A stretch of 64,000 nt of DNA from a virus, in the IMG/VR virus record IMGVR_UViG_3300044653_000098, positions 32,001-96,000 of that record; one strand, written 5' to 3'. The position numbers and the translations under genes were made by a program. Positions 14,304 through 34,740 of the stretch are shown one piece after another. The notes below the pieces were generated by a model that saw only the letters and a program-made list of their open reading frames with translations, ran no database searches and had not been told where the DNA came from. The stretch's first letter is position 1; every line of letters begins with the position of its first letter.

Positions 14304-14813
14304 ATGCGCACTGACGACACAGATCCCGTGATGAAGCAGGCCCTCGATGCGGCCAAGACCCAGCTGAGGCAGCAGGTCCGCATCCGCGCTGCTGCGGAAA
14401 CCCGTATCGGGCAGCTTCAGGCTACGGTCGCCTCGCTGACCGCCGCGGTGCACGGCCAGAGGCCGCCGGGAACCGGGGAAGTGATCAAGGGGTTCCTGGA
14501 CCGCCTGCAGCCGGGAGAGGATATCGACGTTGCCGAGCTGGTCAGGTACGGGCGGTCCGTGAACTGGGTCTCGACCTCCCCGGAGGAGCGCACGGCGCTG
14601 ATCGGCCGGCTGTCCCGGTGGGCTCTGGAGGGCCGCGTTGCCCGGGCTGATAGCCACCGGGCCGGCCGGTACCGGAAGCTGACCGAGGAGGAGCAGGCTG
14701 CCTACGAGGCCGCGGAGGAGGAGCGCCTGCGGAACATGCCCGTGGTCACCCGCACCCGCGGCTCCCAGGGACGGCCGGGAGGCCGGTATCCCAGTAGACA
14801 CGTGTCAACCTGA
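14304..14813 (+). CDS. Hypothetical protein (coiled coil plus possible winged helix)
   Basis: 169 aa; its 3' end contains the first palindrome copy. Confidence 0.5.
   Translation: MRTDDTDPVMKQALDAAKTQLRQQVRIRAAAETRIGQLQATVASLTAAVHGQRPPGTGEVIKGFLDRLQPGEDIDVAELVRYGRSVNWVSTSPEERTALIGRLSRWALEGRVARADSHRAGRYRKLTEEEQAAYEAAEEERLRNMPVVTRTRGSQGRPGGRYPSRHVST
14793..14810. promoter_or_regulatory. Cassette palindrome copy 1 (TAGACA-N18-TAGAGT on +)
   Basis: AGTAGACACGTGTCAACC; -10 at 14819-14824, ATG at 14832. Confidence 0.8.
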
Positions 14814-14831
14814 TCCGCTAGAGTTCTCCCC

Positions 14832-15107
14832 ATGATGAATCTTCCGGTAGACGAGTTCTGCGATGGTTGCGGCCAGCCGGCTGGCCTGTGCGGTGGCGAG
14901 TGCAGCCCTGACCTCATCGAGTACACCCCCATAATCCGGTATGCCGACGAGGTTCTGCATCTGGTCAATACCGAAGGCCGGCCGGTGCTGCTCGATCGCC
15001 ATCCGTCCCCGCACGTGCGCGTGCCGGTCGGGCTCTTCGAGATCACCCGCCACGGGCCCAGGGTCCGCCGGACCCCGGTGCAGCCGCGGGAATGGTGGGA
15101 GGACTAG
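14832..15107 (+). CDS. Hypothetical protein with Cys-rich N-terminus
   Basis: Apparently leaderless, downstream of the palindrome promoter. Confidence 0.5.
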   Translation: MMNLPVDEFCDGCGQPAGLCGGECSPDLIEYTPIIRYADEVLHLVNTEGRPVLLDRHPSPHVRVPVGLFEITRHGPRVRRTPVQPREWWED

Positions 15108-15438
15108 CACGCTACCCTGATCAGCTCCAGGTGGTCAGTCGGCGTTTCCTGTAATCCTCCCCACGCGCTCAGCCGTCCACCTTTCATCAGCATGCGCGCG
15201 TGGAGGTGGGGAGTGGTTGCCCGGTCCGTCCGCAAGATCGTCAAGACCCAGCGTGAGCTGAGGGAGGAATGCCTCGGCGCCGGGCACTGGGTCATCGAAG
15301 GTTACGACGTGCACCGGGCGACCGGCTCTGGCTCGGTGAAGCGGTGGCTCATAAACGATCCCCGCGGTAACAGGGTCGGCCAGCCGGCCACACTTGGACA
15401 GGCACGGCAAATGATCAGAGATCTGCTAGGGGAGTTAC

Positions 15439-15744
15439 GTGGTGTGGGCAGCGCTGACCATCTACAGCCTCATCGGCGGCACGATGGTGTTCTTTGTGTG
15501 GGCAGGGCTCACCGGCCAGCTGCCGTACCTGTTCGGCGCCAGCCCTGAACGCAGAGAGCAGCGCCGCCGCTACCGGCAGGTGATGCGCTGCCGCACCGTC
15601 CGGGCCCAGTCGGCCATGCTCCAGGAGGCGTGCCCGGAAGAGCACGGCAACGGCCATGTGGTGCTGTGGGCCGATCACAAGCCCTCCGCGGTCCGGCTCG
15701 ACCTGCTGTGGGGCCTGTTCACCTTCACCCGCGATCCAAGTTGA
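15439..15744 (+). CDS. Small membrane-anchored hypothetical protein
   Basis: N-terminal hydrophobic helix; GGGGAG upstream. Confidence 0.5.
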   Translation: MVWAALTIYSLIGGTMVFFVWAGLTGQLPYLFGASPERREQRRRYRQVMRCRTVRAQSAMLQEACPEEHGNGHVVLWADHKPSAVRLDLLWGLFTFTRDPS

Positions 15745-15756
15745 CACGTGTCTACC
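15739..15756. promoter_or_regulatory. Cassette palindrome copy 2 (TTGACA-N18-TAGTCT on +)
   Basis: AGTTGACACGTGTCTACC; -10 at 15765-15770. Confidence 0.85.
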
Positions 15757-15813
15757 AGCTTCGGTAGTCTGGTGCCCTGTTAAGAATCTGCTGGACGGTC
15801 TTTGGAGGGCGCC

Positions 15814-16092
15814 ATGCCACGTTGGCCAGACGATCCAACTGCGACACGTCCTCCCGGCATGTACCGCGATCCTGGGGAGCGGCGCGTGAGCGTTGCGCAG
15901 GCCAGGATCGCGCTGGCCCTGGAGAACCTTCAGGCCGAGCATGGCCTGACGACTATCGAGATGCTCCAGGCGATCACCTCCTGGCAGCAGACCGCCATCA
16001 AGTTCATGCTGCGGGCCGAGCGCGGGGCTCCGGGTGAGCCCGCGGAGGATCGTCTTATCGATCCTGAAGACGCCGTGAGCCCAGGGCTGTGA
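15814..16092 (+). CDS. Hypothetical protein
   Basis: GGAGGG before ATG; first of a run of overlapping genes ending in whiB. Confidence 0.5.
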   Translation: MPRWPDDPTATRPPGMYRDPGERRVSVAQARIALALENLQAEHGLTTIEMLQAITSWQQTAIKFMLRAERGAPGEPAEDRLIDPEDAVSPGL

Positions 16093-16274
16093 ACGGCCAC
16101 TGCCGGCAGCCGGAGTGCACGGCCACCTACGGCGCGCATAAGTGGGGCAAGATCCGGGCTCACAGTGAGGGCTGGTTCTTTCCCGATGACGCCGAGCCCG
16201 GTGGCTGGTGCCCGGATCACCTGCCCGAGTGGGTGCCGGACTGGCGCGCTCGCAAGTCGGCGGCCCGCGGATGA
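16089..16274 (+). CDS. Small Cys/His protein
   Basis: CRQPEC...WCPDH; start/stop overlaps on both sides. Confidence 0.5.
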   Translation: MNGHCRQPECTATYGAHKWGKIRAHSEGWFFPDDAEPGGWCPDHLPEWVPDWRARKSAARG

Positions 16275-16534
16275 ACCGGGTCCAGCTTGATCAGCAGGCT
16301 GAGCTTCTGGCCGAGGAGCTGTGGCGTGAGCTTGCCGGGCAGACGATGAAGAAATGGATGCTGCTCACGGGTGAGATGGTCGCTACCCCGGAGTGGGAGG
16401 CGTTCCGGGCCAAGGTCTTCGTCAGAGTAGAGAGCAGGATGAACAACTGGCTGCCCGCCGTCGAGGAGCTGCCCAATGGCCAGGCGCTGTCTGAGCCGGT
16501 CCCAGAGCGCCGCAGGCGCCGGGGGCGGATGTGA
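16271..16534 (+). CDS. Hypothetical protein
   Basis: ATGA overlap; MNRVQLDQQAELL... Confidence 0.5.
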   Translation: MNRVQLDQQAELLAEELWRELAGQTMKKWMLLTGEMVATPEWEAFRAKVFVRVESRMNNWLPAVEELPNGQALSEPVPERRRRRGRM

Positions 16535-16709
16535 CTAAGAGAGGCGCGTTCCCTGCGGGTAAGCACCAGGCTGCGCTCCGGCAGTCGGGGCGGTTCGTTG
16601 AGCACCCGGAAGACTGTGACTGCCGTCGGTGCAGGCGTCTGCGCAAGGCGTTCCTCCGGCGCTCTACGCCCCCCACAGACCCTCTGGGGCGCCCGATCGG
16701 CGGCCCTAG

Positions 16710-17030
16710 GTGAGCGTCTACCTCATCCACTTCGCCCGCCCGTTTGGCCCTGAGGGCGCCCCAGCGGGCAGCACGGCCCAGCACTACATCGGCAGCTCGC
16801 CCGAGTACCGGCTGAAGGCTCGCCTCCGCGAGGAGCTGACCGGCTGCGCGGCCGCCGCACGGCTCATGCAGCATGTGGTCGCCGCGGGTATCGCCTGTGA
16901 GGTCGTGCGGACATGGCCGGGCGGCCGCAAGCGGGAGCGCCAGCTCAAGACTCAGGGCAGCGCCCGCCGGCTGTGCCCGGCGTGCGGGGTCAGGCCCGGC
17001 AAGGGCTGGACAGTCAGGAGCGTGAAATGA
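16710..17030 (+). CDS. Small GIY-YIG-like endonuclease
   Basis: VYLIHF...HYIG...RL...ERQLK pattern, C-terminal CPAC. Confidence 0.65.
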   Translation: MSVYLIHFARPFGPEGAPAGSTAQHYIGSSPEYRLKARLREELTGCAAAARLMQHVVAAGIACEVVRTWPGGRKRERQLKTQGSARRLCPACGVRPGKGWTVRSVK

Positions 17031-17163
17031 TCACTGTTCTCGTGGCGTGCGCGCTCGGGCTGGTCCTTGCCGGAGGCATCTTCTGGTTTGCGTGGTGGAC
17101 GACTAAGCCGCTCCGGGGCTACATGGTTACCCGCGGCTGGCCGGCCAACCGGGTGCGCCGCCC

Positions 17164-17424
17164 GTGAGGTTCCTCGACACCAGCTGGCACGAGCGGGCCA
17201 AGTGCAAGGATGCTGACCCCAACCTGTTCTTCACCAAGGCGGGCCAGCACGCGGACGAGGCCAAGGCTCTGTGCGATGGCTGCCCGGTCAGGGAGCAGTG
17301 CCTGGAGGAAGCTCTGGGGATGTCTGCCACGTGTGACTTCGGGATCAGGGGCGGGCTGTCGCAGAAAGAGCGTCAGGCGATAAGAAAGGCCCGGCGCACG
17401 GCCGAGACCAGACTCTCAGCTTAA
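17164..17424 (+). CDS. whiB: WhiB-family transcription factor
   Basis: W..RAKC...P.LFF...AK.LCDGCPVREQCLE.AL...GIRGGLS..ER. Confidence 0.93.
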   Translation: MRFLDTSWHERAKCKDADPNLFFTKAGQHADEAKALCDGCPVREQCLEEALGMSATCDFGIRGGLSQKERQAIRKARRTAETRLSA

Positions 17425-17608
17425 CACTCAGGCAAGCGCAGGTCAGGGGCATAAATCTGTGGCCCGCCCGGCATAGCGCCCAAGCGGGCCACGAGTTTAG
17501 CGTGTGTGCTGTAGTCGATGGTGGCTGGGATCTGGTGCAGTTCCCACGTCGGTGCAGCCGAGGAGGTGAGTCAGGCGGGCAGTTTGGCCGCTGCCCGCCT
17601 GGCAAGCC

Positions 17609-18034
17609 CTACCAGATCTCCGGACCGGCCGGTGTCGCGGTCACCGTGATGAGCGCCATGTACTTCCCCTCCGAGACGTTCACGGTTCGCTTAATCGTGT
17701 AGTCGGTCGGGTAGCTCAGCTCGACCCCGGTGCCAAAGATCTCGAACGCCTGCTTGTGGGCGTAAGCCTGGATCGCCTCGTTGTCGTCCCCGTAGGCCCG
17801 GATCTCGGCGGAAGGGGCTAGGCGCTCGCGTGCCCGCACGTCCACCCGGGCGATGAAGCCCTGGCTGCGGTCCTCTCTGGAGACCGGGTTGGCTGAGTAG
17901 CCGGCGATCTCCAGCACCGTGCCGTGGCCGAAGAACTCCAGCGCCTCGTCCAGCGCGGCGTTCTCGATCTCGTGCGCTCCGGGTCCGCGGATGATGGTTT
18001 GGTAGATGCGCTCGTCCTTGGTGTCGTCGTTCAT
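17609..18034 (-). CDS. Hypothetical protein with an apparent internal two-fold repeat
   Basis: ALDEALEFFG / AHKQAFEIFG; AGGAGG SD. Confidence 0.55.
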   Translation of the reverse strand: MNDDTKDERIYQTIIRGPGAHEIENAALDEALEFFGHGTVLEIAGYSANPVSREDRSQGFIARVDVRARERLAPSAEIRAYGDDNEAIQAYAHKQAFEIFGTGVELSYPTDYTIKRTVNVSEGKYMALITVTATPAGPEIW

Positions 18035-18046
18035 GGGCGGTACCTC

Positions 18047-18661
18047 CTAGGTGGGCCGGAGCGGGTTCAGCTCGTCTTCCAGTCGGCCGACGAGCTTGTG
18101 CAGCTCGTCCAGCGTGAAACTCATCCGGTCGTCGTGGCGGTAGTCCCTCAGCACTTCGATGCCCAGCACTTCCAGGCGGGCTGAGAGGTCGTCGCGCTGG
18201 AGCTGGAGCCGGTTGCGTGCCGCGGTGGCTTCCTCCCGCTGGCGCCGGTCGTTGTCTTCCTGCCGGGCCATCTGCTGCATCACCTCGTCGTAGAGCCCGG
18301 TGACCGAGGCCATGCGGGTCAGCAGGGTGAGGTAGATCCCGGCGTCAGCGTGCTGCTGTGCCAGCCCCGTGGTGACCGCGGTCGGCTTGATCCTCATCAT
18401 CGTGGCGATCTGGTCCGGCAGGGCGTTCTGGCGCCCGATCAGCACCGGGTAGCCGACCGCGGGGGAGTAGGTGGGCCGCCCGGCTGCCGGCTTGGTGTAG
18501 CCTGCGTCGCCGGCCACCAGATATGCGGGATCGGAGGGCAGGTCGCCGCGCCATCTCTGGCGGTAGAGCGTGCTGGACAGAAACACCAGCGGCTGTGGGT
18601 GATTCCACGACCGGTTCTGGTATGCGTAGACGATGCCTAGTTTGATGTCCTGTTTCCTCAT
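18047..18661 (-). CDS. Hypothetical protein
   Basis: 204 aa, GGAGG SD, C-terminal coiled coil. Confidence 0.6.
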   Translation of the reverse strand: MRKQDIKLGIVYAYQNRSWNHPQPLVFLSSTLYRQRWRGDLPSDPAYLVAGDAGYTKPAAGRPTYSPAVGYPVLIGRQNALPDQIATMMRIKPTAVTTGLAQQHADAGIYLTLLTRMASVTGLYDEVMQQMARQEDNDRRQREEATAARNRLQLQRDDLSARLEVLGIEVLRDYRHDDRMSFTLDELHKLVGRLEDELNPLRPT

Positions 18662-19108
18662 CTATGCCTCCTCCTGGAGCTTGGCCAGCCCGGCGTCGGT
18701 GAGCCCGTACTGGAGCCGGTGCATTGTGGGTGTTCCGAAAGACCGCACCGTGCTGTCGAGCAGGCCGAGGCGCACCAGCCTCTGGGCCAAGCCCGCCATT
18801 CTGGCCGGGGTGCCCTCCAGCGCTTCCGCGAGCATGACGTGTGTGGTGGCACCCTCGTGCACGGCGTTGAGCACCCACCACAGGTTGTCGGCCATCCGCC
18901 TGCCCCATCTCACGTGCAGCAGCGCTGCGCAGATGTCGCGCTGGTCTGTGCGAGCCTGCTCCAGCACCTGCTGCAGTGTGTCGATGTTCCGGATCTTGAT
19001 CATCCCGATCTCGCCGGCCGCGAGGATCCACACACCGCCCTGGTCGTCCACACCGATTTGTGCTTCCGACTCGGGTACGTCGTAGAGGATCTTCATGCCC
19101 TGGTCCAT
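18662..19108 (-). CDS. Putative MarR-like winged-helix DNA-binding protein
   Basis: WVLNAVHEGATTHVMLAEALE...LAQRLVRLGLL...YGLTDAG. Confidence 0.55.
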   Translation of the reverse strand: MDQGMKILYDVPESEAQIGVDDQGGVWILAAGEIGMIKIRNIDTLQQVLEQARTDQRDICAALLHVRWGRRMADNLWWVLNAVHEGATTHVMLAEALEGTPARMAGLAQRLVRLGLLDSTVRSFGTPTMHRLQYGLTDAGLAKLQEEA

Positions 19109-19113
19109 AGTGA

Positions 19114-19462
19114 TCAGCTCCTGCTTCGTTCGATCGCGTCCGCGGCAAGTTCCATGATCCAGTCGGGGGCCGGGATGCCATAGAGAGACTTAGTGCTTGG
19201 GCTGTAGCTGAGGGACATCCACTGCTCGATCGGCCTGCCGGTGCCCCAGCGGCCCTTCACGGCTACGCGGGTGATGTCTGGCTTTTCTCCCACCTTGTAG
19301 CGCACGGCAACCCGCACCTGAGTGACCACGATCTCCGAGGTCTTCCGCTTGGCCCCTTCCGGGTAGCGGTGGACAAGGATCGTCGGCCAGCCCATGCGGC
19401 GTGGTCGTGCCCACACGTACTGGTCATCGTGGTAGCGGGTGAGGTCCGGCTCATTACCCATA
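19114..19462 (-). CDS. Hypothetical protein
   Basis: Start re-assigned to MGNEPD after a degenerate leader GGCCAAAGAACGGAGCC. Confidence 0.5.
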
Positions 19463-19507
19463 TCCTGGCTCCGTTCTTTGGCCAACTGCTCATACATTAG
19501 CACGTCT

Positions 19508-19525
19508 GGTTGACACGTGTCTACC
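19508..19525. promoter_or_regulatory. Cassette palindrome copy 3, bidirectional (TTGACA-N18-TAGGTT on +; TAGACA-N18-TAATGT on -)
   Basis: GGTTGACACGTGTCTACC between divergent genes; leader AGCCCAGTAAACGGAGGC at 19554-19571. Confidence 0.88.
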
Positions 19526-19574
19526 GACTCTGCTAGGTTTCTCTCATGACCACAGCCCAGTAAACGGAGGCCAG

Positions 19575-20516
19575 ATGGAAACCTACACGTTCGCCGACCC
19601 TGAGCTGTCCCCTCTGCCCATGAAGTGGGTCTGGGACGGTTACATCCCGCGGTACTGCATGACGGAGGGGTACGGCGAGGGCGGGACGATGAAGGGCCTC
19701 GGCATTCAGAGCATCATCGCCCTGATCACCCTCGGTGCGGACATGCCGGACGGCAGCCTCAACGGGTTCGGTGGTCCGCGCACCGTGATCAGCATCACGG
19801 GCGAGGATCTGCTGCGGCAGGGCATGGCCTGGCGCTACCGCGCGGCCGGCGCCGACACCCGCAATATCGTGGATCTCAGCAAGGACGAGAACGGCCGGCC
19901 CTTCAAGCTGAACGACGCGGGGCTCGCGCGCATCCGCGAGGAGATCGCCAAGATCAACTCTCACGAGGGCAAGTACCGGCATATGCCGGACTACGGCTTC
20001 CTGTACCTCGACCCCATGATGAGCATCGCGCCCCGCAGCGTCACCCAGAACACCACGTTCCGTGCGGTGCTGCTCGAACCTCTCGACGCGCTGTGCGCCG
20101 AGGAGGAGCTTGGCAAGGACGGCACGGGCTGCTTCCTCATGAACCACTCGACCAAGGACAAGAAGGTCGTGGCCGGCTCGGCCGCCGCAGTGCAGGGCCC
20201 GCGCATGGTTCTCGGGTTCCGCCAGAGCGACCGCAACCCGCTGTGGCGTGAGCTGTACCGGTACAAGACCAATATCACCGAGAACACCCCGGCTCCCGTG
20301 CCGTACATGGGGGAGGGCAAGGACACCAGTATCCGCGTGCGGTGGATGACGGACTCCTGGGAGCAGCGCCGCAGCGGGTCCGGTGTCCTGAGCCGGTACG
20401 GCTCGCGCGCCTCGGAGGCCATGGCTCCCGCGCCAGTCCCGGCCCCGTACGCGGCGCCCGTTCCGCAGCCGGCCAGCGTTGGCGAGATGTGGAAGAATCT
20501 CCAGTCCAGCATGTGA
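19575..20516 (+). CDS. AAA_25 / RepA-helicase-like P-loop protein with degenerate Walker A
   Basis: WVWDGYIP...GEGGTMKG; ITGED; RYRAAGAD; FLYLDP; MNHSTK...AGSAA. Confidence 0.7.
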   Translation: METYTFADPELSPLPMKWVWDGYIPRYCMTEGYGEGGTMKGLGIQSIIALITLGADMPDGSLNGFGGPRTVISITGEDLLRQGMAWRYRAAGADTRNIVDLSKDENGRPFKLNDAGLARIREEIAKINSHEGKYRHMPDYGFLYLDPMMSIAPRSVTQNTTFRAVLLEPLDALCAEEELGKDGTGCFLMNHSTKDKKVVAGSAAAVQGPRMVLGFRQSDRNPLWRELYRYKTNITENTPAPVPYMGEGKDTSIRVRWMTDSWEQRRSGSGVLSRYGSRASEAMAPAPVPAPYAAPVPQPASVGEMWKNLQSSM

Positions 20517-20535
20517 TGTAGCCGCGGAGGCAGTC

Positions 20536-20811
20536 ATGGAACGCATGGAGCTTGCCGACGCACGGTCCGGGCCCGCCCTGCAGGAGGCTGTGCGTCTTGC
20601 GCGCGACAAGCAGCGCACGACCGAGATCATCGAGGATGGCATGGTGATTGCGGTCATCAGTCCCGCGCAGAGCGCGGAGCCGGGCCACGCTGCCCGCGGC
20701 CAGGCACCGGATGAGATCGAGCAGGGCATTGCCTCAGCCTCCCGGCTGAGCGCTGAGCTTGGCCTGGAGCTGACCCGTGTCCGCGATCTCGTTGCACAGC
20801 AGAGAGGGTAG
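20536..20811 (+). CDS. Hypothetical protein, possible Phd/YefM-like N-terminus
   Basis: GGAGG before ATG; EAVRLA...TTEIIEDGMVIAVISP. Confidence 0.4.
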   Translation: MERMELADARSGPALQEAVRLARDKQRTTEIIEDGMVIAVISPAQSAEPGHAARGQAPDEIEQGIASASRLSAELGLELTRVRDLVAQQRG

Positions 20812-20818
20812 CTCACCT

Positions 20819-20836
20819 GGTTGACACGTGTCTACC
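20819..20836. promoter_or_regulatory. Cassette palindrome copy 4 (TTGACA-N17-TAATAT on +)
   Basis: Exact motif; leader AGCCCAGCAAACGGAGGC at 20859-20876. Confidence 0.88.
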
Positions 20837-20880
20837 GCACCATTAATATAGATCTATCAGCCCAGCAAACGGAGGCGATT

Positions 20881-21120
20881 ATGTGGAGACAGCGTAAGCC
20901 TGAGACCCAGCGCCAGCCGCATCCCGACCCGTCTATTGAGGTCGAGCTGCAGCGGATCATCTCGCTTCAGCGCGCGGCAGCCCGCAAAGAGACTGAGCTG
21001 GATCAGCTCCAGGAGCTTACCGGCAGGCTGCGGAAGGCTATGCAGGCCGAGGCTAGTGCTGTTACCAGCAACGGAGAGCGCCGCAAGCAGATCGACCGGG
21101 CATGTCGGCCGGACCGGTGA
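20881..21120 (+). CDS. Small coiled-coil hypothetical protein
   Basis: ATG follows the conserved leader; in frame with ORF 20821..21120. Confidence 0.55.
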   Translation: MWRQRKPETQRQPHPDPSIEVELQRIISLQRAAARKETELDQLQELTGRLRKAMQAEASAVTSNGERRKQIDRACRPDR

Positions 21121-21235
21121 GCTGGAGGCGGAGGTCGTTCGGCTCCATGACGAGATAGCCAACCGCCTCACTCCTATGCGCGAGGAAGACCGCGCGTACC
21201 TGTACGACTCCACCAAACAGAGAGGATGATGCGCC

Positions 21236-21784
21236 ATGAAAGGTATCTGGACCAGAAACCACTTCGACGTGGTTGCCGCGGTGCTGCAGCGTGCTGTCGA
21301 CACGGCTGACCACATCGAGGGGCCGCAGGGGAGCAGTGCGCACCGCGCGCTGGAGTTCGTGTGCGAGGCATTCGTCGCGGTATTCAATGCGGACAGCGAG
21401 CGCTTCCAGCCCGACCGGTTCCGCCAGGCGGCCGGCCTTGACCCCAAGGGCACCACGGTGCAGCTCGATGAGCGGGAGATGTTCTTCTACGAGCACGCTA
21501 ACTGGGCCGGGAAGTTCGAGGGGGAGTCCGCGGCGCACGCCCGCGGCCGCACCGCGATCTTGCTGGCCGACGCGGAGCGGTGCCTGGAGAAGACACCGGA
21601 CACCCGGATCGAGTGGGAGCCTGACCCGGCAGGCAGGGTTGGCACGGATTTCTGGGGTGCCTACCTGTACCAGGGCGGCAGGTTCCTCGGCTCGGATGAG
21701 GTGGAGCTGACCGGCGACCCGGAGAAGGACGCTGTTCGCAAGAGAGTCACCACTGCGATCCTCGCGCTGGAGTACCTTGCCTGA
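21236..21784 (+). CDS. Hypothetical protein
   Basis: TRNHFDVVAAVL...F.ADSERFQPDRFRQAAG resembles a recurring small phage domain. Confidence 0.6.
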   Translation: MKGIWTRNHFDVVAAVLQRAVDTADHIEGPQGSSAHRALEFVCEAFVAVFNADSERFQPDRFRQAAGLDPKGTTVQLDEREMFFYEHANWAGKFEGESAAHARGRTAILLADAERCLEKTPDTRIEWEPDPAGRVGTDFWGAYLYQGGRFLGSDEVELTGDPEKDAVRKRVTTAILALEYLA

Positions 21785-21877
21785 CAGGAGGTGAGTGGAC
21801 TCCACCTCGGAGCACCAGTTCTGCACTGCAGGCTGGTGCTCCGCTTTGTGTGAGGGTACTCCGTAAGGCCGTAGATA

Positions 21878-27458: not shown

Positions 27459-27504
27459 GCTGGCCTCCGTTTGTGGGCTTGCTGTGTCCTCATTGTCTCA
27501 TGCC

Positions 27505-27522
27505 GGTAGACACGTGTCAACC
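27505..27522. promoter_or_regulatory. Cassette palindrome copy 9 (TTGACA-N17-GACAAT on -)
   Basis: Exact motif; followed by hairpin ACGGAGCCCCG...CGGGGCTCCGT (about 27528-27563). Confidence 0.85.
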
Positions 27523-27580
27523 ACAGCACGGAGCCCCGCACCTCTGCAGGCACGGGGCTCCGTACGGGCTTAGGCGGCCC

Positions 27581-28810
27581 CTAGTCGCGGCCGGCTGTGC
27601 CCGCGGGGAGGTCATCCCACGCGGTGTGCTGAATCCTCCGGCCATCCTCGCTGATCTCATACAGCACGGTGCAGCTCCGGGCCTTGACCTTGTTGCCGAC
27701 CGGAACCATGCTCGCGTAGTCGACCGCACAGGCAAGGAAGCGCACGCCCCGCACATACTCGCGCGTGTCCTCTGCGGTAGCGCAGAAGTGCAGACCGTGT
27801 CCGCAGTGCGGCTCCGGGGTGTAGTCCTCCGCTGTGACCGTGGAGCCAATCTCATACCGGATATCGCCATGGCCGACGGGCGAGCTCAGGTCAGCTAGCA
27901 CAGCCTTGACCAGTGTCACGGTCTTGCCGTCATCGCTGAGCGTCAGGCCACGCTCAGCGAGCCAGCGTGGTCTGGCGTTGCGCGCGTCACGCTTGGCTCT
28001 CCGCTGCGCAGCCTTGAGCCGGCGGACAGCCTCCGCACGCTCGCGCGCTTCGGTCTCCAGCCGTGCTGCCTTCTCTTCTGGGGTCTCGTACAGCCGCTTG
28101 GCGTTCGGATCGATCACCATGCCGGAACTGTCCACGCGGATACCGTCATAGAAGATCGCCGGCCGTTGCTGTGAGCCGTAGTCGGCAACCTTCGAGCCGT
28201 GGCAGTTGTGGCACGTGGCCTGATGCTGGCCGGTCACACCCATGCCGCGGTGCCTGTGCCATTGGCCAACCACGCGTACGGTTTCTGGCTGATCACGGAG
28301 AGGCCAGCCATTGCGCTGTAGTGCGGTTGGCACAGGCTCATTCCAGCGCACTGCAAAGTCATATGACCATTCAGAGCATGGGTAGGTCCGGCCCTCTATT
28401 CCCCGGTAGTGGTTGGTAACCGAGTAGTCGGCCGGGTGGTAGTAGCTGACCGTGCCCCAATCGTTTACGGTGACCAGTCCCGTGCCCTTGCACGTGCGGC
28501 ACTTCTGGAGCTTGGCCGGCATGTGGGGGTCTGAGCTGTGCCACACAGCCCAGACGCCACGGTGTGAGTACACCCGCGCGGGCCCGTAGCCATTGATCCT
28601 GTCTTTGGTGGTGACGGTCTCCCACCCGCCAGTGTTCAGGGTGTACGTGCCGTCTGCATGGATGGCCACCACGTCTGTGTTGTGGAGCCGGACAGCGTAG
28701 TTGCTACCTCTCTCCACTAGATAAGTGTTGTTCTGCAGCTTGCGCCGTGGTCCGTATCCGCGGTCCTGAGCACGCGCCATCATGGTCTGTGCGTCTTGGT
28801 AGCTGAGCAT
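27581..28810 (-). CDS. Multidomain hypothetical protein with split CxxCxG Zn finger
   Basis: 409 aa; RKLQNNTYL...TGGWETVTTKDRIN; CRTCKGTG...CHNCHG; YEIGSTV...CGHGLHFC; leader at 28818-28834. Confidence 0.7.
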   Translation of the reverse strand: MLSYQDAQTMMARAQDRGYGPRRKLQNNTYLVERGSNYAVRLHNTDVVAIHADGTYTLNTGGWETVTTKDRINGYGPARVYSHRGVWAVWHSSDPHMPAKLQKCRTCKGTGLVTVNDWGTVSYYHPADYSVTNHYRGIEGRTYPCSEWSYDFAVRWNEPVPTALQRNGWPLRDQPETVRVVGQWHRHRGMGVTGQHQATCHNCHGSKVADYGSQQRPAIFYDGIRVDSSGMVIDPNAKRLYETPEEKAARLETEARERAEAVRRLKAAQRRAKRDARNARPRWLAERGLTLSDDGKTVTLVKAVLADLSSPVGHGDIRYEIGSTVTAEDYTPEPHCGHGLHFCATAEDTREYVRGVRFLACAVDYASMVPVGNKVKARSCTVLYEISEDGRRIQHTAWDDLPAGTAGRD

Positions 28811-28863
28811 TGGTGCCGCCTCCGTTTGTGGGCTTGACCTTGTGACCTCACCTTAGCATGGCT

Positions 28864-28881
28864 GGTAGACACGTGTCAACT
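28864..28881. promoter_or_regulatory. Cassette palindrome copy 10 (TTGACA-N18-TAAGGT on -)
   Basis: GGTAGACACGTGTCAACT. Confidence 0.85.
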
Positions 28882-28882
28882 A

Positions 28883-28920
28883 GAAACCTCCCGTACCCTG
28901 TGGCGGATACGGGAGGTTTC
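28883..28920. terminator. Terminator hairpin abutting the palindrome
   Basis: GAAACCTCCCGTA-loop-TACGGGAGGTTTC, 13-bp stem. Confidence 0.8.
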
Positions 28921-28937
28921 CGGGGGTGAGCTGAGAG

Positions 28938-29474
28938 CTAGTCCGGCTCACCAAGCGGGCCGGTCATGCTCAGTATGTTTGTGGTGATCTCCTGCCGCAC
29001 GCTGGCCGGTATCGCTGCGGCCGACACTAGCGCGCTGACAACCTCGCGCCATTCCGCGCGGGTGAGGTCAGCACCGAGGATGTCATCATCCGCGATTCCG
29101 AACGTGTCAGACTCCCACACGTACAGCCGGCAGTTGTCGGCTACGTAGTACGGGAAGTGTTCCGCAACCAGCCGCTCTATCGTCGCGTCCCACGCTGCAG
29201 CATCGCCGCGGTAGAGCGGCGCACTGGCACGCTTGTTATCGAACGTGGCAGCGAGGTTATACATGGTGTCCGCCTCCGCGCGGATCTTCCATGCGTCCTC
29301 ATACTGGCCGGCGTCCGCGTAGCTGACCGCGGTGTCTCCTGCCTGATCGGCCGACTCGCTCAGCATGCGGCGCACCTCGTCGGCAACGTCGCGCCACGTG
29401 GTGGCCACGCTGAAATTGTCGTCGCTAGCTTCGGGCCCGTATCCGGGCAGTCCGTAGGCAAGGATCATGCGCAT
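28938..29474 (-). CDS. Acidic hypothetical protein
   Basis: 178 aa; GGGAGG SD. Confidence 0.65.
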   Translation of the reverse strand: MRMILAYGLPGYGPEASDDNFSVATTWRDVADEVRRMLSESADQAGDTAVSYADAGQYEDAWKIRAEADTMYNLAATFDNKRASAPLYRGDAAAWDATIERLVAEHFPYYVADNCRLYVWESDTFGIADDDILGADLTRAEWREVVSALVSAAAIPASVRQEITTNILSMTGPLGEPD

Positions 29475-29479
29475 GGCGG

Positions 29480-29662
29480 TTACCTCCCCTGCCTGATCAG
29501 GTATCCGAAGCCGGCCGCGTCGCGCTGGTCAGCGCGGAATGCGGCACGCTGCAGACTGGCACGCCGGCGGGCACGCTGCATGCGGCCGGCCTTGACGGCC
29601 AGGCGTTCAGCCAGCGGCGCACGCGGAGCCGCGTGGCGTGGGGTGGGGTTGGTGTCGTTCAT
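29480..29662 (-). CDS. Small basic hypothetical protein
   Basis: MNDTNPTP... after leader at 29670-29687. Confidence 0.55.
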   Translation of the reverse strand: MNDTNPTPRHAAPRAPLAERLAVKAGRMQRARRRASLQRAAFRADQRDAAGFGYLIRQGR

Positions 29663-29714
29663 TGTTCTAGCCTCCGTTTGGTGGGCTTGCTTACAGGTCA
29701 ATCCTCGCACGGAC

Positions 29715-29732
29715 GGTAGACACGTGTCAACC
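29715..29732. promoter_or_regulatory. Cassette palindrome copy 11, bidirectional
   Basis: TAGACA-N18-TAGTCT on +, TTGACA-N18-GAGGAT on -; mirror-image leaders at 29670-29687 and 29756-29773. Confidence 0.9.
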
Positions 29733-29780
29733 TCTCGTGCTAGTCTGATCTCATCAGCCCACCAAACGGAGGCACCCAAA

Positions 29781-29993
29781 ATGTTCAATCTCTACGTATG
29801 GGAAGGCGTCCTAGCAGGCTGGTCAAGCGGCATGGCTGTGGCGATCGGCCGCACGCAGGATGAGGCCATAGCCACGCTTGACCGCCTCACGCCTAAAGAT
29901 GTGCGTGAGCTGCAGAAGGAAACCCCGGAGGTTATCCCGTTGCGTGCCCGTGGCATGACGCCTAGAGGCTGGTACCTCTACGGGGGAGACTAA
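29781..29993 (+). CDS. Hypothetical protein (70 aa, MFNLYVWEGVL...)
   Basis: Starts after the conserved leader. Confidence 0.65.
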   Translation: MFNLYVWEGVLAGWSSGMAVAIGRTQDEAIATLDRLTPKDVRELQKETPEVIPLRARGMTPRGWYLYGGD

Positions 29994-30024
29994 GGGAACC
30001 CCGTAAGGCCGTTCACACGCGCCG

Positions 30025-30639
30025 ATGTGTGCGAGCGTGCCTGTTGTCGACTCGGCGGATATCTCCGATCTTCCGCCGGCGTTGCGGCCGCGTAAGGCCA
30101 GCGTGCCCGACGCGCTCTCTGATCTGCCCGTCGGGTTCAACGTGCTGCATGAGCCACGGCCGGCCGCTCAGCGCGCGGAGGCTGCACCGCTAGTTGTCCA
30201 GTGCTATCACTGTGCGCGCATCCGCCACAGCAAGTGTGCGCGCATTGCCGGAACGGGCCCGTGCCTGTGCTACCAATGCCACAGATTTAAGATCATTGCC
30301 GACGCTGAGTCAGCGCTCACCTCGCGTGACGCGCGGCGTTTGGCCGAATCGCTGCAGCTAACTCTGATCTTGCTAGCGCAGCGCATAGGCCGTGAGCCTA
30401 AAGACAATCCCGACCCCTATCCTCCTCGCGCTTGCGCGTGCGGCTGTGGCCGGCTCGTCTACAGCTCATCCCGCGGAGGCGCACGGAAGAAATACGCTCG
30501 CAAGTCATGCCTCAAGGCGGCCGACGCGCGACGTTCCCGGGCCCGCAAGCGAGAAGGGAAAACGGGCACGTTCGTGCTTATCTCCGCGTTCGATGCAGAT
30601 GGTTTCCCCCTGCCTGGCATGGTGGCTCCGCCGGCCTAG
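30025..30639 (+). CDS. Cys-rich Zn-binding hypothetical protein
   Basis: CYHC, CLCYQC, CACGCGR...KYARKSC. Confidence 0.5.
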   Translation: MCASVPVVDSADISDLPPALRPRKASVPDALSDLPVGFNVLHEPRPAAQRAEAAPLVVQCYHCARIRHSKCARIAGTGPCLCYQCHRFKIIADAESALTSRDARRLAESLQLTLILLAQRIGREPKDNPDPYPPRACACGCGRLVYSSSRGGARKKYARKSCLKAADARRSRARKREGKTGTFVLISAFDADGFPLPGMVAPPA

Positions 30640-30675
30640 GCGGGCCCTAGGCCCGGACGGTATGCCACGATGCAC

Positions 30676-30984
30676 TTATTTTGTGAGGTGCGCGTAGGGG
30701 TCTTGACCTTCTGGGTAGATCACCCATGGCTCGTCTGGGCCAGCCTCCCCGTAGCACGTGCCTAGCGGGTGGGGGGTCTCGTTATCCGCTATGGCCAGGA
30801 AAGCATCACGGTCGAATCCGGGTAGCAAGTTCTCAAGATCATAAGAGACTTGCTCCATGAAAGCTCCGGCTATCCGCGCGCAATCGTCGGTTGGCTCCAT
30901 GCCCATATCGATCATCTGCCGGTACATTTCGCTCATGCGCCGTGCGAGCGTTCCGGTAAGGCTGTCTGTGCTCATGGTCATCAC
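30676..30984 (-). CDS. Hypothetical protein
   Basis: GAGGAG SD; PGFDRDAFL echoes the F.PDRF motif of 21236..21784. Confidence 0.55.
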   Translation of the reverse strand: MMTMSTDSLTGTLARRMSEMYRQMIDMGMEPTDDCARIAGAFMEQVSYDLENLLPGFDRDAFLAIADNETPHPLGTCYGEAGPDEPWVIYPEGQDPYAHLTK

Positions 30985-31046
30985 TCCTCACCAATCCACG
31001 GCTATCCAGCAGATAGCCTCTCCGGACGGTGTGGGCACGGTGTCAG

Positions 31047-31994
31047 TCATGAGAGCGCGCCAATCTGGTAACCGAGGCGGGCAGTGAATGCGCGCATGCC
31101 GTCAAGATCCCCGGTGCAGCGGGGATCGGCTGTGGCAATCGAGAGCGTGAGCGCTCCCCATACCATCCACAGCTCAGCGAGCGACAGCACCCATGGCTGC
31201 GGGTTGCTGAGCTTGCCGTGGAGCGAGCGGAGCCGCGCGGAGTTAGCTTCCGTCGCGCCGGCGTTCTCAAGCTCGCTCAGCGCGTTCTCTGCGGCATCCT
31301 GAGCCATGGCACGCTCAGCGCTCGTGAGCAGTCCGGCCGGCCGCGGGTAGGTCTCTATCGGCCGTTGCTCTCCGTTGACGAACTGAAAATGATCTCCCGC
31401 GTACTCAGCCGACCACACGCGCTCGCGGTCCGCTTCCCGTGCCCACAGCTCAGACGCCATGAGCGCGGCTGAGTCAAAGTCAATCCCTGCGTACTGCTGC
31501 AGCGCTTGCGCTATCTGACACCAGCACGCGCACGTTCCCGCGTGCACAGGATTACCGCAGCTCTGGCACCAATCCGGAGCGCCGCGCGAGCGGAGCCATG
31601 CATCTACCGCGTCCGTAACCGCATTGGCCATGTCCGTTTCAGCGTCGCTGAACATCACCTCGCTCAGCTCATCCCCGCGCGGCTGGTAGCCGTCTAGCGC
31701 TGTGATCACGTATTCGTTGGCGTCCACATGATCATGCAGCTCAGCAAACGAGCGCGCGGTGTCCGGGATGACGCCGGCCGCTATGTCCTCCGTGATCATG
31801 CGCTGCACCTCTGTGGCGTAGCGCTGAATATCGGCCGGCTGTGGCACTATCGCTAGCGCATCCTTGTGCTCTGCCGACCGTAGGCAGTTCCCGCACGTGA
31901 CGTCAGACCATGCTGCGGTGTAGACGCAACGGTGCGCCGGCATGTGGCACGGTGACCAGGATGCGCCCGGTTGCCTGTAATGGGTCTTGCTCAT
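31047..31994 (-). CDS. Multidomain hypothetical protein
   Basis: MSKTHY after leader 32002-32018; VTCGNC; SFAELHDHVDANEY; CQSC. Confidence 0.7.
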   Translation of the reverse strand: MSKTHYRQPGASWSPCHMPAHRCVYTAAWSDVTCGNCLRSAEHKDALAIVPQPADIQRYATEVQRMITEDIAAGVIPDTARSFAELHDHVDANEYVITALDGYQPRGDELSEVMFSDAETDMANAVTDAVDAWLRSRGAPDWCQSCGNPVHAGTCACWCQIAQALQQYAGIDFDSAALMASELWAREADRERVWSAEYAGDHFQFVNGEQRPIETYPRPAGLLTSAERAMAQDAAENALSELENAGATEANSARLRSLHGKLSNPQPWVLSLAELWMVWGALTLSIATADPRCTGDLDGMRAFTARLGYQIGALS

Positions 31995-32043
31995 CTCGCT
32001 AGCCTCCGTTTGTGGGCTGTGGAGTCTCCACCGTACCATGCAC

Positions 32044-32061
32044 GGTTGACACGTGTCTACT
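32044..32061. promoter_or_regulatory. Cassette palindrome copy 12 (TAGACA-N18-TACGGT on -)
   Basis: GGTTGACACGTGTCTACT; followed by hairpin AGACCCCCGGA-N5-TCCGGGGGTCT (32069-32095). Confidence 0.85.
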
Positions 32062-32114
32062 CAGCACAAGACCCCCGGAGGCTATCCGGGGGTCTGTGTG
32101 GGCTTGGTTGTGGC

Positions 32115-32645
32115 CTAGTGGTTGTTCCCCTCGTCATACAGCCACGTGCCGCACATACGCTCATCACGGCAGATTGCCGACCCGTAGACCTCCGTTTTCC
32201 AGCCGGCCACGAGCTGAGCGAACTCAAGGTCAAGGCTGATCAGCACTATGTCTTGGGCACCATCGGCCGTCCAGTCATACACGGTGTAGGTCACCACGCC
32301 GGCGTCTTGCGCGCGGAGCCATGCGTTGCCGGCCGGAATCGCGGCGAACATCGGCGCGCACTCTGAGAAGTCCTCCGCAAGCTCAGCCTCCGCTGCTTCT
32401 ACGCGAGCACGGTCGGCTGTCGGGTCGTACATTCGGTTCCCAAAGTGTGAGAGCGGTGCATGGATCGGTTCGTCAAGCTCTCCAGCCTCCGCGGCGTCCA
32501 TAGCTGCGCTAATGGCGGCCGAGTTGCGCTGCAGCTCATCCTGCAACTGTGCGGCCGCGCGCTTGGCTACGGCGATCTTCTGTTCCGGGGACAGCTCCCC
32601 AAACCTCTTGCCGGCCGGCCACGCTGTGGGATCGTTCGGGTCCAT
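32115..32645 (-). CDS. Hypothetical protein
   Basis: MDPNDPTAW after leader 32654-32671. Confidence 0.65.
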   Translation of the reverse strand: MDPNDPTAWPAGKRFGELSPEQKIAVAKRAAAQLQDELQRNSAAISAAMDAAEAGELDEPIHAPLSHFGNRMYDPTADRARVEAAEAELAEDFSECAPMFAAIPAGNAWLRAQDAGVVTYTVYDWTADGAQDIVLISLDLEFAQLVAGWKTEVYGSAICRDERMCGTWLYDEGNNH

Positions 32646-32696
32646 TGCTCTGTGCCTCCGTTTGGTGGGCTGTGGAGACTCCATAGTCGCATGCGG

Positions 32697-32714
32697 GGTA
32701 GACACGTGTCAACC
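32697..32714. promoter_or_regulatory. Cassette palindrome copy 13, bidirectional
   Basis: TAGACA-N18-TAGACT on +, TTGACA-N18-GACTAT on -; leaders on both sides. Confidence 0.9.
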
Positions 32715-32771
32715 AGACACGCTAGACTCATCCCACGATGCACAGCCCACCAAACGGAGGCAAAGACTCAG

Positions 32772-33101
32772 ATGGCAAACATCAAATCTCATGACGGCCA
32801 GGCGCACATGAGCGCCACCTACAGCAAGCCGGAAGAGACGGCCAGCCTCACCACAGACGGCAAGACGCACCTGACGCTGACCGTCACCACAGACGGCCGC
32901 TTGCTGCGCAAGACAGCTCACCGTTTCCGCTCATCACAGCGCAAGTGCGGCTACCGGCTCAGCAGCACGGATTACCGCCTCGTGACCAAGGTCAGGGTGC
33001 ATCCTTCCCGCCTCACAGAGGAATACCGGCCGCAGCTCCGCGCTGATCTGGCAGCCATAGCGGCACGGTGGGGGTATGCCCCCGACCACACGGAAGCCTG
33101 A
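32772..33101 (+). CDS. Basic hypothetical protein
   Basis: MANIKSH after leader 32744-32761. Confidence 0.65.
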   Translation: MANIKSHDGQAHMSATYSKPEETASLTTDGKTHLTLTVTTDGRLLRKTAHRFRSSQRKCGYRLSSTDYRLVTKVRVHPSRLTEEYRPQLRADLAAIAARWGYAPDHTEA

Positions 33102-33143
33102 GCACGCCCACAGACGCACGTGCTGTTAGCTCAGCTCCCAAAA

Positions 33144-33183
33144 TACGGGCCGGAGGAAAAGCACAGCTAGCCTCCGGCCCGTA
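33144..33183. terminator. Hairpin after 32772..33101
   Basis: TACGGGCCGGAGG-loop-CCTCCGGCCCGTA. Confidence 0.65.
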
Positions 33184-33240
33184 CTCATGCGCCTAGGTGT
33201 CTCCACAGCAATCCGCGCACAAGAGCTAGCTCAGCTCTCC

Positions 33241-33350
33241 AGCCCCGCACAGCCGCTCGCGTGGCCTCCGTCCCGGGCGTGCCTGTGGGCATGATGTAGA
33301 GCCGTTATGCACCCATAGCCACAGCCCGCTAGTAGCGTCTGCGCGGGGCT
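33241..33350 (+). ncRNA. Candidate structured RNA in a 350-bp intergenic gap
   Basis: Outer 17-nt stem with 2 mismatches, nested stems with G-U pairs. Confidence 0.35.
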
Positions 33351-33455
33351 GAGCTTAACGGAGACAGCCGTACAGCCCTACCCGTATGTAATCGGGTAGG
33401 GCAAACGGCAGAATCGCTCTCAGGGCCGTACAGCTACAAGCGCTGCAGCCATGCG

Positions 33456-34670
33456 TCATCTATCGCGGCGTCCGTCTTGCGGTGCTTGCCTTCCCGCGTG
33501 CCGCGCCTTCATGCCGGCCTCCCACCTGTCCAGAGCGGACAGCACGTCAGCCTGTGCAGTGAGGCTGAGTGTCGCGGTGTAGACGAGTCCGTCAATGACT
33601 ACGAGTGTCAGGCTGACATAGCACTGCGGGCACACGGGCATGTCCCCGCCACACAACTCGCTGTAGGCGGTCAGTGTGCCATCACACGGGGCTGAGCAGT
33701 TCTCACAGCTCACAAGCTCAGCCGGCGCGGTGTAGGGGTGACCCTGCCATGGTGAGTCCGGCCGGTGCGCGTTACGGCCGCACGTGGTGCAGCGCTTGGA
33801 GTTGTGAGCCCCGGACACGTCATCCTTGGCCGGCTGTGCCGTGTCCTCACGCACGGGGCGGAGGTTCGGCCACGTGTAGCCAAGCGCGTAGTGGTCGGCA
33901 CTGTGCCCGTCGGTGAAACTGCAGGTCAGACCCGGCATTCCGGGGTGCATGGACGGGCACGGCTGAGCGTTCGCGCTGGTCCGCTCTTCCGCCGGCTCGT
34001 GCCGTTCCGTGCACGGGATCACCGCTATGGAGTCCCCATCGCTGTAGTGCCGCAGCTCTTCGTGGTAGTGCAGCTCGTGCCGCTCGCTGATCTCGTCTAT
34101 GAGCGCGTTCGTGTCGGCTAGCTCCCGCGCGTCATCGGCCGGCAGCACCTCTAGCGGCTGGTCAGTGTCGTGGGGTCCGTTCATGCCCCGCGCGTCACAC
34201 AGCCACGTGCGCTCGTACTCCACGTACACCAGACGCCACGTGCCTCCGGGGGTCATGCGGAACACTGGCCGGTGACAGTAGCTGCAGGTTCCCTCTTCCG
34301 GCTTCTCAGCTCCCACAACCACAGCAGCCTGAGCGTGCCCGCGTACGCGCGCCTCTTCCGGGCTGGTCACCATGGCTAGCAGCTCATCCGCTACGTGGCC
34401 GGTCTCCGCCATGCGCACGCGCTTGCCTGAGTCCGTCAGCACGTTGCCGTTGTCCTCGTGTCCGGGGCTGAGCGCTTCCGCTGCGGCTGTGGGCACGTAG
34501 AACACCTGCAGCTCAGGGTGAGCCGTGCCAAAGATTCCAGCAAGCTCATAAGCCTGATCCCACGTGCCCGCGTAGTTCGCCGCGCGCTGGAACCGGTTGG
34601 CTGTGGGCTTGCGGTAGGCGATCGTCCATGTGGCTATGGTGCGACTCTCGTGCGTGTTGGTGCTGGTCAT
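33456..34670 (-). CDS. Multidomain protein with several Cys/His (Zn) modules
   Basis: MTSTNTH after leader 34675-34691; CSYC, CTTC, CENC, CPQC. Confidence 0.7.
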   Translation of the reverse strand: MTSTNTHESRTIATWTIAYRKPTANRFQRAANYAGTWDQAYELAGIFGTAHPELQVFYVPTAAAEALSPGHEDNGNVLTDSGKRVRMAETGHVADELLAMVTSPEEARVRGHAQAAVVVGAEKPEEGTCSYCHRPVFRMTPGGTWRLVYVEYERTWLCDARGMNGPHDTDQPLEVLPADDARELADTNALIDEISERHELHYHEELRHYSDGDSIAVIPCTERHEPAEERTSANAQPCPSMHPGMPGLTCSFTDGHSADHYALGYTWPNLRPVREDTAQPAKDDVSGAHNSKRCTTCGRNAHRPDSPWQGHPYTAPAELVSCENCSAPCDGTLTAYSELCGGDMPVCPQCYVSLTLVVIDGLVYTATLSLTAQADVLSALDRWEAGMKARHAGRQAPQDGRRDR

Positions 34671-34724
34671 CTGTGCCTCCGTTTGCTGGGCAGTTGGGTC
34701 AACCATGCTCAGGCTTTCAATGGA

Positions 34725-34740
34725 GTAGACCTGTGTCTAC
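34725..34740. promoter_or_regulatory. Variant cassette palindrome
   Basis: GTAGACCTGTGTCTAC upstream of the last cassette. Confidence 0.55.

Follow-up and report, generated by a model that had tools for sequence, protein, structure and literature searches.

The 64,000-nucleotide stretch of viral DNA analysed here (the window; bases 32001–96000 of the 141,724-bp record IMGVR_UViG_3300044653_000098, which CheckV rates complete and which has a GC content of about 66%) carries many copies of a short palindromic element that is best described as a hybrid of a promoter and a TetR-type operator, probably read by a repressor of the host. The element consists of a 16-bp core, GTWGACACGTGTCWAC, within a pseudo-palindrome of 18–20 bp, and as a standard two-way promoter it appears to start about 18 gene units across the 142-kb phage. 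What seems to be new is the identity of this phage promoter element with an operator linked to TetR genes in actinobacteria, and the putative link to a host repressor is the main interest of the system. Coordinates below count from the first base of the window, except where they are given as genome positions, which count from the start of the record.

The core has 13 exact matches in the window, all within 14794–32713 (starting at 14794, 15740, 19509, 20820, 21879, 24221, 25203, 25718, 27506, 28865, 29716, 32045, and 32698), and none in 100 shuffles. The same 13 copies had been listed in a first-pass annotation of this DNA made from the sequence alone, with coordinates one lower because counting began there at the flanking G of the 18-mer, and the two variants that it named also hold, the one at 34725 with two mismatches and the one at 55319 with one. 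Over the whole genome we find 15 exact copies, two copies of GTTGACACGGGTCTAC and the degenerate 34725 site, for a total of 18 sites. Every one of the 15 exact copies has one face that reads TTGACA and one that reads TAGACA, so that the asymmetry described earlier is present in all 13 copies of the window.

The surroundings of these copies support the description of the element as a two-faced promoter of the primary-sigma (sigma-70/sigma-A) type, as far as sequence can tell. Genome-wide there are 21 faces that point at a gene, and a TANNNT hexamer stands at a distance of 17–18 bp from 16 of them; with the looser NANNNT this becomes 20/21, and TGN, which is enriched, precedes the −10 at 10/21. 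Faces directed at no gene are without a −10, with one chance exception. The claim that nearly every gene-facing face has a −10-like hexamer, often TG-extended, is therefore confirmed with these counts. The pattern T[TA]GAC[AC]-N16-18-TANNNT has 17 matches in the genome and all 17 fall on the element, which means that its copies are the only consensus promoters for the host polymerase that the phage has. The usual order is a TTGACA face, 17–18 bp to TAnnnT or to a TG-extended GAnnAT, a leader, and the start codon, and the TAGACA face shows an equivalent arrangement at 14794, 19509, 29716, 32045, and 32698; the copies at 19509, 29716, and 32698 thus serve divergent genes, as had been proposed. 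The geometry, the way in which the −10 tracks gene direction, and the confinement of consensus matches to the element all support the two-faced promoter suggested at first.

A second function is indicated by the cellular copies of the same sequence. In a scan of one genome per prokaryotic species (GTDB), the exact 16-mer occurs at 70 loci, and 36 of these all lie in the gap between the gene of a TetR_N regulator and a divergent gene for a DUF4345 membrane protein, in Streptomyces, Kitasatospora, Streptacidiphilus, Lentzea, Micromonospora, Nocardia, and Goodfellowiella. A near-identical partner site stands within about 120 bp at all except three of the 36 loci, the spacing of the pair (measured at 32 loci) being 15–63 bp with 33 bp the commonest value. 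At a further two loci from actinobacteria, L122 and L137, the site is again paired but has a different TetR-type setting. The paired palindrome also precedes a major facilitator superfamily (MFS) pump in Cryobacterium and flanks another TetR gene in an uncultured actinobacterium. The other 32 loci come from unrelated taxa and have one site each without a partner, which is the chance level. The consensus of 68 host sites, T[A/G][G/C]TTGACACGTGTCTAC[T/C]A, equals the phage element, and 58 of the 68 have the T/A asymmetry as it is in the phage. Four host genomes, each of about 8 Mb, have the 14-mer core at the TetR/DUF4345 locus and nowhere else, the recognition helix is invariant among 34 orthologous TetR regulators, and at 22 of 34 host loci the operator doubles as a −35. 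The TetR/DUF4345 divergon with its two 20-bp operators (L114, L100, and about 34 others) is conserved across several actinobacterial families and is apparently uncharacterised in the open-access literature searched; in open-access text we also found no report of this element or of natural host-TetR operators in phage promoters.

The EilR system gives a physical picture of how such a site may work. The consensus operator of this TetR-family regulator, of which each intergenic region has two, has been crystallised in complex with the dimer, and placing it over the −35 and spacer of phage early promoters results in repression (PMC6127294). The phage element and the EilR consensus operator have a GACACGTGTC core in common. 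It had been suggested that the site is also an operator, and this idea is supported and can be made more specific in that the 16-mer appears to be a paired, TetR-linked operator of actinobacteria. The accompanying comparison with the FNR box is not supported, since the 16-mer equals the TetR-linked operator and shares its core with the EilR operator. A CRP/FNR box (TTGAT-N4-ATCAA or TGTGA-N6-TCACA) was rejected because the half-sites (TTGAC/TAGAC here), the fixed ACGT centre, and the host gene context, which is one of TetR and not CRP-family genes, do not match.

We propose that each half of the pseudo-palindrome would act as a −35 for host primary-sigma RNA polymerase, TTGACA being the strong version and TAGACA the weaker one, with the −10 at 17–18 bp setting the direction of transcription so that an element would fire one way or both. 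The whole palindrome would be the binding site of a TetR-family repressor dimer, given its identity with the operators beside host TetR genes, and a bound dimer would shut both directions at once since the site covers the −35 and the first 10 bp of spacer on both faces. The repressor is most likely that of the host because the phage encodes no TetR protein: HTH_3 and TetR_N have no match in the phage (six frames; TetR_N at E<=1) or in its relative G001, and the host TetR regulator has no tblastn match in either. Phage_integrase and Resolvase likewise have no match in the phage (six frames) or in G001, and on account of these four absences the phage is probably virulent. The phage has about 18 of these sites and an 8-Mb host chromosome has 2, so a repressor that is scarce in the host would keep the units switched off. 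Release might then come, speculatively, from the ligand of the repressor or from its titration once phage DNA replicates, and the centre-variant copies in front of the replication and tRNA units may, again speculatively, have weaker binding and be freed first. The promoter–leader repeats could in addition provide short homologies through which accessory cassettes are exchanged by general recombination, a step that is partly supported (see below). A bolder version, which we put forward only tentatively, is that every consensus promoter of a probably virulent phage is wired to a ligand-sensing TetR protein encoded by the host alone, so that the early and accessory programme would be gated by the chemical state of the host or by titration and the phage sites would act as a sponge that derepresses the host target.

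Several points weigh against control by a host TetR repressor and against the mechanism built on it. The phage sites are single whereas host sites are paired, most often 33 bp apart, and the search for TetR_N described above found no cognate TetR gene next to a phage site. Two back-to-back −35 hexamers alone explain 12 of the 18 positions, and the ends of high-scoring segment pairs (HSPs) between the phage and G001 show no enrichment near the motif over a gene-boundary null (P ~0.8). Both the binding of the repressor and its carriage by the host of this phage are predictions, and a probably virulent phage has no evident reason to place all its strong promoters under a host repressor. Finally, a phage protein of another fold could read the site, for example the weakly winged-helix-like 148-aa protein encoded in the array.

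This last point leads to the alternative in which a phage-encoded dimer of a non-TetR type binds the palindrome and shuts off or times the units, with the host match being mimicry or coincidence. Where a phage has repeated operators, they are usually read by a repressor that it encodes itself, as with stoperators and the conserved inverted repeats (CIRs) of phiC31. The gene at 18662–19108 (minus strand; 148 aa) is the only DNA-binding candidate noticed inside the array, it belongs to the operon on the TAGACA face of copy 3 and would itself be transcribed from the element, it is conserved in G001, and its product resembles MarR/HTH_45 winged helices in Atlas (scores of 0.85–0.86, TM of about 0.5; a lead only). 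Nevertheless, no test ties any phage protein to the site, the candidate binders that the first-pass annotation had named in the phage included, and the phage has no HTH_3 or TetR_N gene. An identity of 16/16 with the host TetR operator consensus, down to the asymmetry, would also be unexpected for an unrelated fold, and we regard a phage-encoded reader as unlikely.

It is also important to consider whether the element is a promoter and nothing more, that is, a pair of back-to-back −35 boxes kept uniform by copying or gene conversion, with RNA polymerase as its sole reader. The two hexamers that cover 12 of 18 positions and the three truly bidirectional sites speak for this, as do the mosaic flanks and the leader, which shows that concerted evolution operates in the array. 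The conservation of the palindrome speaks against it. Ten copies are used one way only, and all 16 positions are invariant in them, the unused half included; at 14794 and 32045 it is the strong TTGACA face that is directed at no gene. G001 has all 18 sites at orthologous places, and between orthologous sites of the two phages the 16-mer differs at 4/288 positions (1.4%) against 69/360 (19%) for the 10-bp flanks (Fisher P 1e-14), with information content collapsing at the motif edges. Metagenome relatives retain the exact element or the centre variant even where their proteins are only 45–65% identical. These results agree with the earlier statement that the bases between the two −35s are conserved beyond promoter needs. 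The standard leader of the array behaves differently: a distant relative, L026, has another one (GAACCCA...CAGGAGGYAAGGACCAATG; at 1190–1230, 1670–1705, and 2255–2290 of that fragment) while the palindrome is kept. The leader is lineage-specific and, to judge from these sequences, evolves in concert within a lineage, and because it changes by lineage while the palindrome stays, the palindrome is likely held by something outside the phage. Concerted evolution free of constraint would have given lineage-specific versions of the palindrome as well, but it is identical in all lineages and equal to the host operator consensus, and divergent sites, too, retain the T/A asymmetry although a pair of TTGACA boxes would suit them better. 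A promoter-only explanation therefore seems quite improbable to us.

The next possibility is a gene-capture platform, integron-like or working by crossover within the palindrome, in which the element would mainly be a site of recombination and only secondarily a promoter. The array region is hyperplastic, its comparison with G001 breaking into 16 short homology blocks in 21.5 kb where blocks elsewhere are 7–14 kb long. Genes directly behind the leader have been inserted, lost, or replaced relative to G001 at 20881, 27458, 29781, and 32645, with similar changes in fragments L084 and L056. The 79-aa gene at 20881 (copy 4) is missing from both G001 and the metagenome fragment L031, the first genes of copy 9 are replaced in G001 from the ATG onward, and copy 11 in G001 has the same −10 on its TAGACA face followed by a different, leaderless gene. 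(Around 98217 of G001, a leaderless gene stands in place of the leadered gene 29781–29993.) At 14794, 15740, and 20820 homology to G001 runs out at the edge of the motif, 2 bp past it in the case of copy 2. Copy 1 is flipped in G001, so that its TTGACA face is turned toward the gene, and its far flank has no homology. Two cassettes that are tandem in the phage are divergent in L026, in which another gene has been relocated, and the flanks of paralogous copies are mosaic, with one downstream module found on the TTGACA face at one site and on the TAGACA face at another.

Cassette shuffling among relatives is real, and exchange at the repeats is plausible. The earlier proposal that the motif is a recombination point has weak support: content, order, and orientation differ among relatives and flanks are mosaic, but HSP ends, although enriched near promoter units over a uniform null (P ~0.02), are, as given above, no nearer to the motif than expected from gene boundaries. 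The arrays of the phage and G001 are colinear with all sites orthologous, and the −10 boxes and leaders point to expression as the primary use. An integron was rejected, since Phage_integrase and Resolvase gave no match and the phage lacks a further class of repeat able to act as attC, so that the integron-like platform of the first-pass annotation has neither a tyrosine/serine recombinase nor an attC-like partner. Because no recombinase is encoded, exchange would need general homologous recombination, and a site that exists mainly for recombination is very unlikely. Least credible of all is activation by phage WhiB (17164–17424) together with host WhiA and sigma-A at the inverted GACAC words: the phage does encode a WhiB-family protein, and GACAC, the WhiA motif that mimics the GACA of the −35 (PMC10243135), is present, but we rejected this reading on geometry, since the WhiA site of the solved complex lies upstream of the −35 and GACAC here lies inside or just downstream of it, while WhiA sites are asymmetric single words and not palindromes of 16–20 bp, and the host copies of the element adjoin TetR genes.

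The array itself extends over 14793–34740 on both strands, has a slightly lower GC, and holds the 13 exact copies and the degenerate one, with about 17 transcription units of 1–4 small genes each. Most array genes are missing a Pfam or PHROG family; the recognised cassette genes are WhiB, an AAA_25 ATPase, a DUF7666 protein, an HNH endonuclease, and a weak anti-restriction match. In copy 1 (14794–14809) only the TAGACA face is in use, on the plus strand, with a −10 TAGAGT at 14819–14824 and an ATG seven nt on at 14832; its TTGACA face is directed into the end of the upstream gene and is without a −10. Copy 2 (15740–15755, plus) uses its TTGACA face with TAGTCT at 15765–15770 and drives the plus-strand operon that includes WhiB. 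Copy 3 (19509–19524) is bidirectional: on the plus side TTGACA is followed by TAGGTT (19534–19539), the standard leader, and the ATG at 19575 of the AAA_25 protein (313 aa), and on the minus side TAGACA is followed by TAATGT (19494–19499) and the ATG at 19461 of the four-gene operon with the winged helix-turn-helix-like gene 18662–19108. The next two copies point along the plus strand from their TTGACA faces, copy 4 (20820–20835) with TAATAT at 20844–20849, a leader, and the 79-aa gene starting at ATG 20881, and copy 5 (21879–21894) with TACCAT at 21903–21908 and an ATG at 21944.

From copy 6 to copy 10 the TTGACA face serves the minus strand each time, with a leader before the start codon. 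Copy 6 (24221–24236) has TAAGCT at 24207–24212 and an ATG at 24179 or 24173, its operon being made up of 23688, 23104, and 22792 with the weak anti-restriction PHROG match in the first gene. Copy 7 (25203–25218) has the same hexamer at 25189–25194 and an ATG at 25158 (224 aa), copy 8 (25718–25733) has TAGATA at 25703–25708 and an ATG at 25663 (131 aa), copy 9 (27506–27521) a TG-extended GACAAT at 27492–27497 and an ATG at 27458, and copy 10 (28865–28880) a TG-extended TAAGGT at 28850–28855 and an ATG at 28810 for the DUF7666 protein of 409 aa. Copy 11 (29716–29731) works both ways, through TTGACA and GAGGAT (29701–29706) toward ATG 29662 on the minus strand and through TAGACA, TAGTCT (29741–29746), and a leader toward ATG 29781 on the plus strand. 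Copy 12 (32045–32060) uses only its TAGACA face, on the minus strand, with TACGGT at 32030–32035, a leader, and ATG 31994 (315 aa), and its TTGACA face looks into a hairpin at about 32063–32100 that ends the convergent upstream gene. Copy 13 (32698–32713) is again bidirectional, with TTGACA, GACTAT (32683–32688), and ATG 32645 on the minus side and TAGACA, TAGACT (32723–32728), and ATG 32772 on the plus side. The degenerate copy, GTAGACCTGTGTCTAC (34725–34740, minus), has a weak −10, AAGCCT, a leader, and ATG 34670 (404 aa); its orthologue in G001 is GTAGACACGTGTCTAC.

The variant with a central mismatch, GTTGACACGGGTCTAC, lies on the plus strand at 55319–55334 with a −10 TAGTCT at 55343–55348 and precedes the replication-module gene at 55411; it is found again at genome 119460 in the tRNA region and is kept at the site of G001 orthologous to 55319. 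Both positions are outside the accessory array, ahead of replication or tRNA units, and have the same ACGT to ACGG change of the centre, which G001 keeps. On these grounds the ACGG-centre copies may be an operator class of lower affinity.

The standard 5' leader, CCCA-N1-3-AAACGGAGG, is present in 13 copies between 19556 and 34690 and stands 5–9 nt ahead of the start codon, beginning at 19556, 20861, 29758, and 32746 on the plus strand and at 24196, 25178, 25686, 27477, 28832, 29685, 32016, 32669, and 34690 on the minus strand. The ATG at 14832 and an ATG at genome 135031 (365-aa frame; site at genome 135010–135033, outside the window) are candidates for leaderless starts, being 6–7 nt past the −10. 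G001 has a swapped promoter at the place of 14832 but retains the leaderless arrangement. Beside copy 3, a mini open reading frame (ORF) of five codons (ATG ACC ACA GCC CAG TAA; 19546–19563) begins 6 nt past the −10 and is closed by a TAA that belongs to the leader. The same −10 together with a ATGACCAC block also heads the long leaderless ORF at genome 135031, and the shared block suggests a promoter module fused onto the standard leader.

Hairpins were judged by folding energy because a consensus scan for T-tailed terminators gave no excess (9 found vs. 7.7 expected). Taking strong to mean at or below the 2nd percentile of background folds, strong hairpins adjoin 5 of 21 faces (genome 9062 and window 25203, 27506, 28865, and 32045), the rest being weak or absent. 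The one next to copy 7 (about 25224–25250) has a T-run and reaches −29.9 kcal/mol, in the 0th percentile; copy 9 has one at about 27526–27565 (−39 kcal/mol) and copy 10 one at about 28882–28921. Terminator hairpins had been said to abut the element often, and although strong ones do occur, five faces in 21 make this an overstatement. A second small repeat, CTCCGGCCTTACGGAG, which forms a short hairpin, occurs at 21859–21874, 25250–25265, and 25745–25760 (3 observed vs. 0.08 expected), each copy 5–32 bp upstream of a palindrome copy.

The phage is an actinobacterial siphovirus-like phage from high-GC soil bacteria and not a myovirus of the T4 type. The first 60 nt of the record are found again at 141,542, a terminal overlap of about 183 bp, and the 132.5-kb relative G001 is a circular permutation of it. 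A megablast of 40 kb against GenBank phages found no close cultured relatives; by DNA polymerase the nearest cultured phage is Microbacterium phage Magritte at 35% identity, which has no such array in the interval from tail to replication genes. Additional relatives are seven fragments from soil metagenomes, whose proteins are 45–95% identical to those of the phage, and the AAA_25 cassette protein has matches only in G001 by tblastn and a pattern-based locus search. A host search by DNA similarity over 401 actinobacterial genomes gave short weak matches only (the sample includes two unpublished genomes, on which no claim depends). The exact 16-mer also occurs once, at a leaderless promoter, in the unrelated viral contig G002 (IMGVR_UViG_3300003312_000131, GC 68%), where a variant, GTTGACAGATGTCTAC, lies 1.3 kb from the exact copy with a similar upstream flank (sites at 13543–13558 and 14818–14833); this may be a case of chance or convergence.

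In architecture, the closest analogue would seem to be the promoter-early stem-loop (PeSL) cassettes known from T4-type phages (PMC2839356, PMC4122927). Both systems have many near-identical strong early promoters for the host sigma factor, often coupled to a Shine-Dalgarno sequence and a terminator hairpin, and in both they cluster in a hyperplastic region rich in small ORFans, where indels and replacements separate close relatives. They differ in that the conserved block of the array is a two-direction palindrome equal to a TetR operator and that a strong hairpin abuts few of its faces. As to indel and replacement junctions, which in a PeSL cassette would lie at the repeated motif, three are at the motif edge here and one copy is flipped, with no excess over the gene-boundary null. 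In regulation, the element is like EilR–eilO, whose 16–24 bp palindrome contains the GACACGTGTC core, overlaps promoter hexamers, and stands beside its TetR gene, and which represses a phage early promoter tightly when it covers the −35 and the spacer (PMC6127294). The phage sites, by contrast, are single, dispersed about 18-fold, and unaccompanied by a TetR gene, their binding being a prediction, and the T/A asymmetry of the natural actinobacterial version is lacking in eilOc.

An integron shares with the array the series of small unrelated genes, but the array has no integrase, attI, or attC and gives each cassette its own promoter, whereas integron cassettes are promoterless. The stoperators of Cluster A mycobacteriophages, which are asymmetric and block elongation, and the CIR operators of phiC31 are read by the immunity repressor of the temperate phage itself. 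As with the element, many copies of one short operator coordinate many phage units there, but our phage is without a recognisable repressor or integrase and its site is a palindrome on the −35. The array is thus neither an integron nor a system of FNR boxes or stoperators. LexA boxes are examples of host-factor sites in phage promoters, and like them the element would be a site for a regulator that only the host encodes; unlike them, it would answer to a local TetR repressor with a two-site regulon and not to a global factor, and it sits on every consensus promoter of the phage.

If the proposed reading is true, the array would be a natural counterpart of the engineered hybrids between operators and phage promoters, and a phage would have delegated all its strong promoters to a local, ligand-responsive regulator of the host in place of its own repressor or a global factor. 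The conserved TetR orthologue and the 18-mer form a directly testable protein–DNA pair, and for the engineering of actinomycetes the element may serve as a compact promoter part that is repressible and works in both directions. The finding that the leader varies by lineage while the palindrome is invariant offers a clean way to separate external constraint from concerted evolution. More broadly, the PeSL idea of standardised regulatory cassettes in hyperplastic regions would be extended from T4-type phages to phages of high-GC bacteria.

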